Source: Methanopyrus kandleri AV19 (GTDB lineage: Archaea; JAADCQ01; Methanopyri; Methanopyrales; Methanopyraceae). Taken from it: a DNA stretch of 32,000 nucleotides. Below the pieces are notes generated by a model. The model did no database searches. It was not told where the DNA came from and saw only the letters and a program-made list of their open reading frames with translations. The stretch lies in contig NC_003551.1 of NCBI RefSeq assembly GCF_000007185.1, forward strand, positions 1,380,001 to 1,412,000. Reading direction: 5' to 3'. Positions 12,767 to 22,089 of the stretch are shown piece after piece (the first letter of the stretch is position 1; each line of letters begins with the position of its first letter). The translations under genes and the position numbers were made by a program.

Positions 12767-13741
12767 TCAGTGCTTCTTGTACAGATCCACCCACGCCCTC
12801 ATTCTCACCGTCCTCCAGCCTCGCTCGCCCACTAGCTCGATGACGGCTTCCCGTGTCGCCTCGCCCGGTAGCACGACGAACCGCTCGACCGGTTCTCCTT
12901 CGGGCTCCTCTACGCCGTCGACGAACGGTTCCATGTTCGAGTACGACGCCTCGATCGCCTCCTCGTCGAGCGTCTCCAGCAGCCCGCCGATCCCGCCAGC
13001 CTCGATCAGCGCGGCGAGCGTCGCGAGGGTCATCATGGCCTGGCGGTCGATCATCTCCTGCGGTGCGCCGAGCGCCTTCACCGCGCAGAACTCCTTCAGC
13101 GCCTCGATCACGCGCTTCAATAGGACGACGCTGAGGTCGCCGACCACCGATACCAGCTCCACGTGCGGGAGCTCGAAGACCTCCTTGCCCGTGGAGGACA
13201 ATACCTCCTCGACGAGCTCCGCCTGCTCCTCCGTGGCGAGGACGGTGCCGTTGCCCGTACCCCGGGCGGTGATGTAGGCCCGGTGGTTCTCGGTGCCCGG
13301 GATGCCCGCTGGGTGTGCGGGCATCACGCCGACGGCTTCGGGCACCTCCAGTCCGGCCTCGTACAGGCTCTCGTGAATCTCGAAAGCGGAAGACGTACAG
13401 GTGGGACAAACGACGGCCCCTTCTTCCAGATGCGAGGCTATCTCGCGGATGATGCCACCGGTGGCGCCGAACGGTGTGAACAGGACGACCATCTCGGCCC
13501 CTTCGACGGCCTGGGCGTCGTCCTCGGTCAACTCAACACCGGCGTCGGCGACCCGGTCCACGTGCTCGGGGTCCTGCTCGCTCAGGTTCGGGTCCGCGAG
13601 TACGACGTCGTGGCCCGCCTCGGCGAACTCGATCGCCATGGCTGCACCGCCGAAGGGTGGCTCCCCACCCAGCTTCTCGGCGGCGCCGATCCTCTCGTAC
13701 AGGCGCTGGTTGCCGAAGCCGAGGACGGCCACGGTGGCCAA
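12767..13741 (-). CDS. Hmd paralogue (H2-forming methylene-H4MPT dehydrogenase-related protein, HmdII/III-like)
   Basis: Collinear with [Fe]-hydrogenase Hmd: VAVLGFGNQR (cf. AILGAGCYR), TEDDAQAVEGAEMVV, the cysteine-containing CPTCTSS at the position of HACTIPT, HPAGIPG, ALGAPQEMIDRQA. TTG start 13741 has a GGGGGT SD and a TTTATCA box about 35 nt upstream. Confidence 0.85.
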   Translation of the reverse strand: MATVAVLGFGNQRLYERIGAAEKLGGEPPFGGAAMAIEFAEAGHDVVLADPNLSEQDPEHVDRVADAGVELTEDDAQAVEGAEMVVLFTPFGATGGIIREIASHLEEGAVVCPTCTSSAFEIHESLYEAGLEVPEAVGVMPAHPAGIPGTENHRAYITARGTGNGTVLATEEQAELVEEVLSSTGKEVFELPHVELVSVVGDLSVVLLKRVIEALKEFCAVKALGAPQEMIDRQAMMTLATLAALIEAGGIGGLLETLDEEAIEASYSNMEPFVDGVEEPEGEPVERFVVLPGEATREAVIELVGERGWRTVRMRAWVDLYKKH

Positions 13742-20046: not shown

Positions 20047-20054
20047 TTTATATA
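20047..20054. promoter_or_regulatory. Shared bidirectional TATA box (TTTATATA) between pdxS and the GTPase gene
   Basis: The only AT-rich element in the 67-nt divergent intergenic region. It lies about 31 nt from the pdxS ATG (20016) and about 30 nt from the GTPase ATG (20084), which also has a GGAGGGGGT SD. Confidence 0.5.
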
Positions 20055-20083: not shown

Positions 20084-20647
20084 ATGATTTCGGAAGATAG
20101 CGGTAGTAATGAGGATCGGGAGGTTAAGATAGCCGTGATCGGGCCGGAGGACGCCGGCAAGACCACTGTGGTCCGGCAGCTATCCGACAAGTTCACCACG
20201 GTATCGCCCCGTGGGAAGACCGTGGGGATCGACTTCGGGAAGTGCAAGTACTACGAGGGGGTATACATGTTTGGCGTTCCGGGACACCTGCGATTCAAGT
20301 TCGTGATGCGTCTGGGGGCACGGAACGCCGACGGTATGATCCTGGTCATCGACTCGGCCGATCCACGCATAGACAAGGCGGTTAAGATATACAATATCGT
20401 GAAAAGTGTTGTGAAGAACCCGCATCGCGTCGTGGTCTTCGCCAACAAGCAGGACCTCCCCGACGCCCTGTCGCCGGAGCAGGTCGGGGAACTCGTCAAG
20501 AGGGCACTGGGTATCTCCCCACCCGTGATCGGGACCGTTGCGATTAAAGGGGAGGGGTTACGGGAAGGCCTTGACACCTTGCTCTTCCAGCCCACCTACA
20601 ACGGAACTAATGAAATTGATGATATCGAGATTAAAGGGATCCGCTGA
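20084..20647 (+). CDS. Small Ras-superfamily GTPase, MglA-like / COG2229-type
   Basis: 187 aa. G1 GPEDAGKT, G3 FGVPGH (no Asp, His for Gln), G4 NKQD, G5-like AIKGEG. ATG 20084 preceded by an SD. The ORF-track start 19940 overlaps pdxS and is rejected. Confidence 0.85.
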
Positions 20648-20668
20648 GCCCCTACAGGGGTCCCGACG

Positions 20669-21601
20669 TTGCCCGTCCCCGTCAAGAACAGGGCCACCCT
20701 CGCCCAATTGATGTTATCCTATGGGATCACGATATGCGTAGACGAGGATGTCCTCCGGGCCATCAACGAGATGACGTTCGGGCAACTGCCTATGATCCTG
20801 GATGAGTCCGTCAACGTCCCCTTAGAGTATGAGGAGAACATCATAGACGCTGAATTGGTATCACTGTTGGAGTTCGGTGAGGATATGGTATCCTCCCTCC
20901 TCGACATGATCGTTGTCGTGAGGGTGAACGCCGTCAACGGTACCGGCACACCGTGGGAGTTATTAAACACCATCCTACTGGCCGACAATCCGGGAAAAGT
21001 CGAGTTAAACGGTTCTTACTTCTCCATCTTCGCTATCGACGAGAGACAGATCGTATACATATCGAGCAGCGGGAGACGTCGGATACCGTACACCGATCTC
21101 ACTTACATGAAAGACATATCGGAATGGGTGAATGCGCGCAATATAATGTCCCCGAATTACGCATATATATATGACGAGAGCGCGCTCAACATTACGGAGG
21201 ATGTGCTAAAGAAGAGATACAGGGCGAGTATCAAAGGATTATCAGAATTGCTTGATAGACCTAAACATTGGGTGCGAATTGATACTACTATTACGGAGAA
21301 AAAGGACGGTATATTGATTAGAGATAGACTTCTTGATTGGATAGAACCATTAGAATTCACTAAGATAACGGTAAGACGTGATGTGGATGAGCCAGCTATC
21401 GAGGCAATTACTGGTGAGTCAAAAGTGAATAAGGTGTATGCACTTAGGGTATTCAGGGAGATCAAACCCGGATTCAAAACGTACCGTGAACTCGTGGAGA
21501 GGGCCCAGTTACCGGATTCTATAGTGAAGTCCACCTTAGCACTGTTCACGAGGTTTAACTTCCTGATGTATTCATTCAAGTACACTCCTCCGATAATTTA
21601 G
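20669..21601 (+). CDS. Uncharacterised 310-aa protein, low-GC, I/N/K/Y-rich; possible C-terminal winged helix
   Basis: An uninterrupted 933-nt ORF in DNA that falls to about 35% G+C, where random stops should be frequent. TTG 20669 lies 8 nt after AGGGGT and 21 nt after the GTPase stop. The C-terminal KTYRELVERAQLPDSIVKSTLALFTRFNFL looks HTH-like. Confidence 0.75.
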   Translation: MPVPVKNRATLAQLMLSYGITICVDEDVLRAINEMTFGQLPMILDESVNVPLEYEENIIDAELVSLLEFGEDMVSSLLDMIVVVRVNAVNGTGTPWELLNTILLADNPGKVELNGSYFSIFAIDERQIVYISSSGRRRIPYTDLTYMKDISEWVNARNIMSPNYAYIYDESALNITEDVLKKRYRASIKGLSELLDRPKHWVRIDTTITEKKDGILIRDRLLDWIEPLEFTKITVRRDVDEPAIEAITGESKVNKVYALRVFREIKPGFKTYRELVERAQLPDSIVKSTLALFTRFNFLMYSFKYTPPII

Positions 21602-21621
21602 CTCCGCGGGGGGAACGTAGT

Positions 21622-22089
21622 ATGACTTCTGAGGCATTCACCGGAAAATACACTCAGGTGGTACTCAAAGTGCCTGTGTATAAGAGTGCAGGTGTTGAGT
21701 ACAAACCGTCACTGTATGTGATTCCGATGTGTTTTCAGGGCGATCTGATAGCGGGCGAGCTGGCCGTCGCCACCCTACTTTTCGTGATAATCGTGGGCTC
21801 CCTCTCGTTGATCTCCCTTCGGAACGCCATTCATGCCAGGGATAAGGGCCGAGTCGTACTCCACATCGGGATGCTGACGTTCCTGGCGTCGTTCACGTAC
21901 GCCGCGTTCCGAATGGTCCAATCGTCCCTTTTCGTGCCGGTGGGACCACCGTCACCCAGAACGGTCGCAGTGCCCCCGGCGATCGTGAGCGGCAACGAGA
22001 TCAACATGGTCTTCGTGGCGTCGCTGATCGGCCTCGGTTTGGTCGTGGTCGGAGCCATCGCGTCGATGACACGGCGCATCCGCGTGTAG
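21622..22089 (+). CDS. Small membrane protein (about 3 TM helices) of unknown function
   Basis: 155 aa. ATG 21622 follows a GGGGGG SD, 20 nt after the previous stop. Hydrophobic segments LAVATLLFVIIVGSLSLISL, VVLHIGMLTFLASFTYAAF and MVFVASLIGLGLVVVGAIASM. Confidence 0.7.
   Translation: MTSEAFTGKYTQVVLKVPVYKSAGVEYKPSLYVIPMCFQGDLIAGELAVATLLFVIIVGSLSLISLRNAIHARDKGRVVLHIGMLTFLASFTYAAFRMVQSSLFVPVGPPSPRTVAVPPAIVSGNEINMVFVASLIGLGLVVVGAIASMTRRIRV

Follow-up and report, generated by a model that had tools for sequence, protein, structure and literature searches.

A Predicted Winged-Helix Protein Restricted to Methanopyri Is Encoded Directly Downstream of a Group 4 MglA-Type GTPase in Methanopyrus kandleri

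Introduction

Of the methanogen genomes covered by a 2015 survey, over half contain MglA GTPases of Group 4, which have no known function (PMC4316618). No conserved neighbours were reported for their genes, and the order 'MglA>MglB>' is found in Methanocaldococcus and in some Methanococcus strains (PMC4316618). MK1372 (187 aa) of Methanopyrus kandleri is listed in this group with no MglB gene within four genes of it, while orphan MglB genes (MK0216, MK1325) are located elsewhere in the genome (Wuichet & Sogaard-Andersen 2015, PMC4316618). The subject of this work is the gene that follows the GTPase gene in a stretch of 32,000 nucleotides of M. kandleri AV19 (contig NC_003551.1, positions 1,380,001 to 1,412,000, forward strand), called here the window. 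The 310-aa product of this gene (20669..21601, +) is named X. It belongs to a family confined to Methanopyri and is viewed, at moderate confidence, as the cognate partner of the GTPase in this lineage. From gene order X should correspond to MK1373. Neither MK1372 nor MK1373 is mentioned in the paper texts searched.

Multi-gene modules around MglA-type GTPases have been described in bacteria. The actinobacterial conservon codes for the membrane sensor kinase CvnA, the Roadblock protein CvnB, CvnC (DUF742) and the MglA-type GTPase CvnD. CvnC belongs to the helix-turn-helix (HTH) clan. The Group 3 MglA systems of beta- and gamma-proteobacteria include a 'DUF' protein composed of an N-terminal receiver-like domain and a C-terminal winged HTH (wHTH), for which a role in linking the GTPase with transcription has been suggested (PMC4316618). 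NPRL2 and NPRL3 of GATOR1, the GTPase-activating protein (GAP) for RagA, have a longin domain at the N-terminus and then C-terminal winged-helix repeats (PMC3747258). A GP motif in the first beta-hairpin typifies the GAP-type longins (PMC12290439).

The Three-Gene Cassette and Its Conservation

X is encoded by the second gene of a compact cassette. Its features, with those of X itself, are the following.

20047..20054, + strand: TATA-box-like element TTTATATA of archaeal type, about 30 nt before the GTPase start codon, read from sequence
20084..20647, + strand: small Ras-superfamily GTPase, 187 aa (Pfam Arf, 1.4e-17)
20669..21601, + strand: X open reading frame (ORF), 310 aa, TTG start and TAG stop, beginning 21 nt past the GTPase stop codon
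20669..20848, + strand: X residues 1-60, acidic block (isoelectric point, pI, 4.1), the most conserved part of the family alignment
20849..21370, + strand: X residues 61-234, mixed alpha/beta in AlphaFold2 (AF2) models, with a predicted local distance difference test (pLDDT) of 59-69 at residues 80-140 and of about 30 at 200-230
21389..21598, + strand: X residues 241-310, predicted basic wHTH (pI 9.6), from Pfam, AF2 and Foldseek
21464-21574, + strand: Pfam HTH_9 match, X residues 266-302 (E=5.5e-5, 23.6 bits for a curated cut-off of 23.4)
21622..22089, + strand: third cassette gene, a 155-aa protein with three predicted transmembrane segments (3-TM protein), beginning 20 nt past the X stop codon

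The ORF agrees with the preliminary description of this DNA, and the two peptides quoted there correspond exactly to residues 61-135 and 268-301 of X. A word-indexed search with X retrieved only four Methanopyrus proteins (89-96% identity), and every named relative of X is a Methanopyrus hypothetical protein. An exhaustive HMMER profile search of 1.84 billion representative proteins gave four X clusters with members of 304-314 aa, and a diverged-member profile search added one close variant, P0023, which shares the second-cassette lineage (see below) with P0022. The orphan status first assigned to X holds, as its relatives in the word-indexed and exhaustive profile searches are solely Methanopyri proteins. 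Outside Methanopyri, the word-indexed, exhaustive profile, PDB sequence and NCBIfam searches found no significant sequence relatives of X except HTH_9; the PDB sequence searches used the whole X family and its winged-helix part.

The X orthologues of loci L001 (6556-7506) and L004 (4541-5485) are 99% identical in protein sequence at a proportion of synonymous differences (pS) of 0.69, which is near saturation. The ratio of nonsynonymous to synonymous divergence (dN/dS) between these loci is 0.005 for X, lower than the 0.022 of the GTPase. Identity between the window and L001 falls to 38% for X and stays at 70% for the GTPase, so that divergence between lineages is far greater for X. Extreme constraint within a lineage is thus observed in X alongside big jumps between lineages. 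X is a real gene under strong purifying selection and the family is restricted to Methanopyri.

A link between X and the neighbouring GTPase had been supposed from the window, and the other loci support it. Throughout the loci found (window, L001-L006, L083-L085), including a second, diverged cassette, X is encoded on the strand of the GTPase and begins 15-24 nt after the GTPase gene. Cassettes L001, L003/L006, L004, L005, L083 and L084 are syntenic, lying between pdxS and cbiF, while L002 and L085 have a different genomic context. Two assemblies (GCA_054007815.1 and GCA_054039895.1) carry two cassettes each, namely the syntenic copy (L083, L084) and a second copy elsewhere (L002, L085). Both copies display the same gene order and spacing, at an identity of about 60% between the GTPases, 25-27% between the X proteins and 26% between the TM proteins. 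Two diverged three-gene copies that keep order and spacing show that the trio duplicates and persists as a unit, and the cassette coding the GTPase, X and the 3-TM protein behaves as a functional module. The 3-TM gene is present downstream of X in the window, L002, L005, L083, L084 and L085 and is missing in L001 and L004. Its product features a conserved cytoplasmic loop motif, A-x-x-A-x-D-K/R-x-R. The element TTTATATA, found in the 73-nt divergent spacer beside pdxS, is a putative promoter of the cassette.

The GTPase and the Slot Downstream of Its Relatives

The GTPase fits membership in MglA Group 4 by its replaced G3 aspartate, by its distribution in methanogens and by the listing of MK1372. 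Its motifs are GPEDAGKT (G1), FGVPGH (G3, without Asp; ~20276-20293) and NKQD (G4). The G3 sequence compares to YTVPGQ of Myxococcus xanthus MglA, the canonical aspartate being gone in both. The catalytic-Gln position of FGVPG-x varies: the window and P0009 have H there, P0008 has Q, P0011 has D and P0012 has S. In switch I the conserved Thr is preceded by K or R. The variable catalytic-Gln position and the K/R residue before the switch-I Thr suggest that catalysis is partner-dependent or unconventional. As read from these motifs, the GTPase may need a partner for catalysis or regulation.

Scanning genomes with the GTPase profile identified 79 loci coding relatives of the GTPase. In 33 of them the next gene downstream belongs to a BLASTP-linked cluster of archaeal and bacterial proteins of about 122 aa; the two members that were scanned both match Robl_LC7 (3e-13 and 3e-16). 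V4R proteins occupy the slot in three loci. There is also room in it for larger products: L027 (4487-5056) codes there for a V4R-domain protein of 189 aa. The slot protein of L041 (4557-5273) has 238 aa and carries a Roadblock domain with a weak XylR_N-like carboxyl terminus (E 0.006, under the Pfam cut-off). A KaiC-like protein follows the GTPase in two Thermoplasmatota loci. The GTPase of 30 loci, which come from Bathyarchaeia, Aenigmatarchaeota, Nanohaloarchaea and others, carries at its amino terminus a fused KaiC-like domain that is degenerate, the Walker A GKT being missing. These fusion ORFs have about 380-400 aa (L007, L009-L016, L018-L020, L022 and others; e.g., L009 3308-4471) and a Roadblock gene is next in most of them. 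The downstream genes of the Methanobacteriaceae loci code for EndoIII and Exo5, which were set aside as unrelated, uninformative housekeeping neighbours. The slot downstream of the GTPase relatives thus often, though not always, codes for a GTPase-associated protein, which gives positional support for X as a partner. X has the position following an MglA-type GTPase that MglB has in Methanococcales.

Three Asgard loci deserve a separate description. Their slot codes for a 255-aa protein that is merely longin-like and starts with 'FD..GP.I.FE' (L077 1032-1799, L079 3386-4162, L081 4519-5280; Sifarchaeum and Borrarchaeota metagenome-assembled genomes). The gene overlaps the end of the GTPase gene and the product has no Pfam match. 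Its start, 'IKAILLIKFDVMAGPYISFE', resembles the GP-motif hairpin of NPRL2, and hhalign against NPRL2 gave E=0.016 at a probability of 2.8%. The protein probably belongs to the GAP-type longins known for Asgard archaea from the literature.

Domain Organization of X

The carboxyl terminus of X is a basic winged helix, which confirms what the preliminary description had proposed from the pattern of the last residues. HTH_9 is matched by nine of the ten family members (best 1.5e-5), the AF2 pLDDT is 74-90 over residues 231-290, and Foldseek returns winged-helix structures. In the better AF2 model the domain comprises helices 255-265, 272-279 and 283-295 and a strand at 299-302, with a pLDDT of 73-90 up to residue 290 and of 58 for 291-300. 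The Foldseek matches include the winged helix of RPC39 (2yu3, prob 0.99) as well as ArsR/SmtB, MarR and IclR regulators, and the PDB sequence search with this part of X found weak matches to the HTH regions of HlyU and IclR. Note that the best PDB sequence match of the region, also weak (E=0.32), is a protein of unknown function from M. kandleri itself, MK0293 (6iwj, 3c19). Charge is split along X, the winged helix being basic (pI 9.6) and the remainder acidic.

The block of residues 1-60 contains the invariant residues A9, G19, I20, T36, G38, D45, S47 and E55 and is a candidate region for contact with the GTPase. A second conserved block, P198..E210..R218-D219-R220..D223, is encoded at window positions 21260-21337. 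With respect to a catalytic arginine finger, a feature sought by comparison with GAP-type longins, R218 and R295 are invariant, and R220 and R236 near-invariant.

Proposed Role of X

We favour, at moderate confidence, the reading that X is a lineage-specific cognate partner of the Group 4 MglA-type GTPase, acting as its regulator, its effector or both, with the basic winged helix as output and the small membrane protein providing localisation or input. X would bind the GTPase via its conserved acidic amino terminus and the central alpha/beta part. It could then tune the nucleotide cycle as a platform similar to a GAP or to a factor for guanine nucleotide exchange (GEF), or read this cycle out as an effector. 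The winged helix would relay the resulting state by binding DNA or another protein, and the 3-TM protein may tether or gate the module.

A number of points weigh against this reading. The adjacency of the GTPase and X genes could reflect co-regulation only. The orphan MglB proteins MK0216 and MK1325 could serve as GAP, in which case X need not replace MglB. The amino terminus two-thirds of X have no significant similarity to any GTPase-regulator fold, and a Pfam search of ten X members at E<=1 gave no Robl_LC7, longin, NPR2/NPR3, DUF742 (CvnC), KaiC, DUF7504 or DUF835 match. The structural model of X is of low confidence (mean pLDDT 57). Finally, the lack of the 3-TM gene in one lineage (L001, L004) indicates that it is not essential to the GTPase-X pair.

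Comparison with the described systems shows how far the cassette follows known organizations. As in the 'Group 4 MglA>MglB>' operons (PMC4316618), a listed Group 4 GTPase without the G3 aspartate (MK1372) has a partner encoded directly downstream on the same strand, which co-diverges with the GTPase. The cassette differs from these operons in the length of X (310 aa versus about 120-160 aa), in the absence of a detectable Roadblock signature, in the carboxyl terminus winged helix and in the 3-TM protein gene that follows X. It differs also in that MK1372 was classed as an orphan and that no conserved neighbour was reported for Group 4. With the conservon it shares the organization as a multi-gene module round an MglA-type GTPase; both also include a component in the membrane and a small one that is HTH-like. 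Unlike the conservon it has three genes rather than four and no histidine kinase, Robl_LC7 or DUF742 match, and its membrane component, a 3-TM protein of 155 aa, has no known domain.

The likeness to the Group 3 'DUF' protein, by description only, is that of a conserved, unannotated alpha/beta-plus-wHTH protein encoded beside an MglA-type GTPase; the 'DUF' protein differs in being bacterial, encoded upstream of mglA and accompanied by MglB genes. The KaiC-like-GTPase fusions followed by Roadblock genes (Bathyarchaeia, Aenigmatarchaeota, Nanohaloarchaea and others) contain the GTPases closest to those of Methanopyri (about 40-45% identity) and are likewise part of multi-component cassettes. In them, unlike in Methanopyri, the GTPase is fused, a bona fide Roadblock protein is encoded downstream and there is no winged-helix protein. 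NPRL2 and NPRL3 of GATOR1 also act on a small GTPase. They present the same order of an alpha/beta region, a helical and beta linker and a winged helix, and they are the top Foldseek matches of X, at a non-significant level. They differ from X, which has no GP motif or amino terminus beta-hairpin, opens with a conserved, mainly helical block of 60 residues and has one clear winged helix only; hhalign gives 0.3% for this pair.

Alternative Explanations

The preliminary description had seen a Roadblock/longin-like core in X, between about residues 60 and 135, and had supposed that one chain combines the roles of CvnB/MglB and CvnC. Put in its full form, residues ~60-140 would be a divergent Roadblock or longin domain, and X a single-chain GAP/GEF platform with a winged helix, similar to NPRL2/NPRL3 or to a CvnB-CvnC fusion. 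This explanation is doubtful. It accounts for the location of X in the MglB slot of the operon and it has a parallel in L041, where a protein of the same slot fuses a Roadblock domain to an extra domain. The alternation of helices and strands on which it was based is reproduced by DSSP on the AF2 models, at low-to-moderate confidence only. A first AF2 run, with five near-identical sequences, reached a pLDDT of 35 and assigned strands 82-87, 118-123, 128-132 and 135-139 and a helix at 95-104. The second, with eight sequences and a mean pLDDT of 57, assigned helices 63-78 and 94-98 and strands 81-85, 100-105, 120-123, 127-132 and 135-140, at a pLDDT of about 59-69. Within residues 1-235 this better model shows a mixed alpha/beta region at a pLDDT of 50-69 and an unreliable hairpin in 200-230. 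The Roadblock topology is alpha-beta-beta-alpha-beta-beta-beta(-alpha), and the better model lacks a helix between strands 100-105 and 120-123, bearing in mind that the pLDDT there is only 59-69.

The structural comparison is ambiguous on this point. GATOR1/SEACIT chains (NPRL2, NPRL3, Npr2, Npr3), with their longin plus winged-helix architecture, top the Foldseek list with 12 of the top 38 matches and 215-300 aligned columns; by sequence, 8adl_S is Npr2 and 8fw5_B is NPRL2. The best PDB match, 7t3b_C, is non-significant (E=0.045, prob 0.57, template modelling score ~0.23, for a model of mean pLDDT 57). No match was found at E<=1e-3, and BFVD gave winged-helix noise only. Among the 50 Foldseek matches listed there is no stand-alone Roadblock, longin, RecA or KaiC structure, and the single-domain matches are winged-helix proteins. 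The resemblance to GATOR1 may be driven by the winged-helix part.

The sequence tests go further against a Roadblock or longin core. With hhalign, the X family scores a probability of 0.13% against a profile of 33 Roadblock sequences taken from the genes after related GTPases (100% for L041, used as positive control with this profile), 0.15% against MglB of M. xanthus, 0.3% against human NPRL2 with only 26 columns of the winged helix aligned, and 0.5% against the Asgard longin-like trio; the MglB and NPRL2 query sequences are 100% identical to PDB chains. The Roadblock hidden Markov model scores X at 0.9 bits, and the profile-profile comparison of X with V4R proteins is at noise level. In the block-shuffle nulls for hhalign, the score of the real alignment is reached or exceeded by 2/24, 2/24 and 9/24 shuffles (Roadblock 2/24, KaiC-like 9/24), which places the real scores inside the nulls. 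Note that the family alignment has an effective depth of about 2.5 sequences and that sequence tests could miss a very diverged fold. The X family does not conserve the GP motif that marks GAP-type longins: the sole 'PG' of X (108-109) is not kept in P0020, P0022 and L002, and X starts with a helical block. The Roadblock/longin core was not confirmed, and of the supposed union of CvnB/MglB and CvnC roles the winged helix is supported. Membership of X in the Roadblock, longin or KaiC-like families is not established; a Roadblock/longin ancestry is possible.

A further reading, which is unlikely, takes X for a common type of transcription factor: a winged helix preceded by a sensor or oligomerisation domain, regulating its own operon or other genes without any physical contact with the GTPase. 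Many archaeal regulators consist of a ligand-binding domain and a winged helix, and the wHTH of X is basic (pI 9.6) and weakly similar in sequence to the HTH regions of ArsR/HlyU and IclR proteins. Yet the winged helix is at the carboxyl terminus, its wing is short and the protein ends a few residues later; the Pfam match is to an RPC82-type winged helix, which is often a mediator of protein contacts. The strict linkage to the GTPase and the joint duplication of the three genes also exceed what is expected for a local regulator.

It is very unlikely that residues 1-235 derive from a KaiC/RecA-like domain, now degenerate and without its P-loop, with the cassette resulting from rearrangement of a KaiC-like-GTPase fusion and addition of the winged helix. 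The 30 loci with a degenerate KaiC-like domain joined to the GTPase and the KaiC-like protein that follows the GTPase in Thermoplasmatota provide a context for it. By eye, 'RATLAQLML' recalls the post-P-loop helix 'GKTTLALQF' and 'IFAIDE' a Walker B strand. The beta-hairpin predicted at the carboxyl end of this part (203-224) is similar to that of KaiC-type proteins, several Foldseek matches are three-layer alpha/beta folds and the greedy hhalign alignment is colinear across 196 columns. The motif resemblances are post hoc, though, and the hhalign probability against KaiC-like domains is 0.23%, a score that 9 of 24 block shuffles equal or exceed. Neither the Pfam search (KaiC, DUF7504, DUF835) nor the 50 listed Foldseek matches (RecA, KaiC) provided a corresponding hit.

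Base Composition and the Rest of the Window

GC content within the window is lowest in the X gene, as first noticed from the sequence. The gene has 46.7% GC (41.7% in its second half; 0.48 at third codon positions, GC3), compared to 64.4% for the whole window, and its product is rich in F, I, N, K and Y (27.7%) and poor in G, A, R and P. The GC content of the cassette is 13-22 points under that of its flanks in four contexts (window 20084-22089, L001 6001-7506, L002 6001-7932 and L004 3902-5485). It is ameliorated to 65% in L005, which belongs to a lineage of 69% GC. Cassette GC stays low in the four contexts although the synteny is deep and vertical. Horizontal acquisition or a selfish nature of the cassette, for example as a module of defence or of a mobile element apart from cellular GTPase signalling, is highly improbable: the low GC, the atypical amino acids and the second copy in a different context, beside a RAMP-like gene fragment in L085, speak for it, but there are no PADLOC or PHROG matches, no relatives among 2.9 million viral contigs, no tRNA genes in the window and no integrase gene noticed (though no specific search for one was made), and the flanks are housekeeping genes whose synteny is kept across deep Methanopyri lineages, with amelioration in L005. 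An origin from a defence system or a virus was rejected, as PADLOC, PHROG and the viral contigs gave nothing significant.

Three similar TTGAT..ATAGA strings reported in the X gene are present at 21252, 21314 and 21333, where they encode LDR, LIRDR and LDWIE, respectively. They are unusual under permutation of synonymous codons (P ~0.001), for a pattern that was defined post hoc. Their role as regulatory sites was rejected. They code for the conserved LIRDRLLDW motif and are missing from the homologous DNA of L001, L004, L005 and L002. The earlier suspicion that they merely reflect repeated codons is correct: the strings arise because a conserved peptide is written here in AT-rich codons.

The other genes of the window are housekeeping genes. 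They code for leucyl-tRNA synthetase (LeuRS), an HMD paralogue, CCA-adding enzyme, 2'-5' RNA ligase, an AAA ATPase and an AIR-synthase-related protein, and further for thymidylate synthase, PdxS, cobalamin methyltransferases, thiolase/HMG-CoA synthase, a GT2 glycosyltransferase and a radical SAM protein. The window has no Rfam matches. Within a few kb of both the syntenic cassette and the second, translocated one there is a gene of the HMD family, coding for H2-forming methylene-H4MPT dehydrogenase or a paralogue (window 12767-13741, -; L002 9791-10810, -), possibly by coincidence. Downstream of the second cassette of GCA_054039895.1, a fragment of a gene (L085 4447-4818) weakly matches RAMP (CRISPR-associated) proteins in Pfam.

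Significance

X is a variant of the known theme of a small GTPase with a co-encoded partner. MK1372 gains a strictly linked and strongly constrained candidate partner with a predicted winged helix, together with a membrane protein, in a trio that duplicates as a unit. The cassette is a candidate three-component GTPase module in a hyperthermophile and adds a new family to the occupants of the MglB slot. If the amino terminus part of X is not a longin or Roadblock domain, X would represent a new kind of small-GTPase partner. If it is such a platform, it would bear on the origin of the eukaryotic longin-type GAP complexes. It is quite unlikely that X is an extremely diverged longin/Roadblock plus winged-helix regulator of the GTPase, that is, a prokaryotic, non-Asgard counterpart of NPRL2/NPRL3 that acts together with a membrane anchor on the MglA side of the GTPase family; were this true, the design of a GAP platform plus winged helix would date back to euryarchaeal methanogens.

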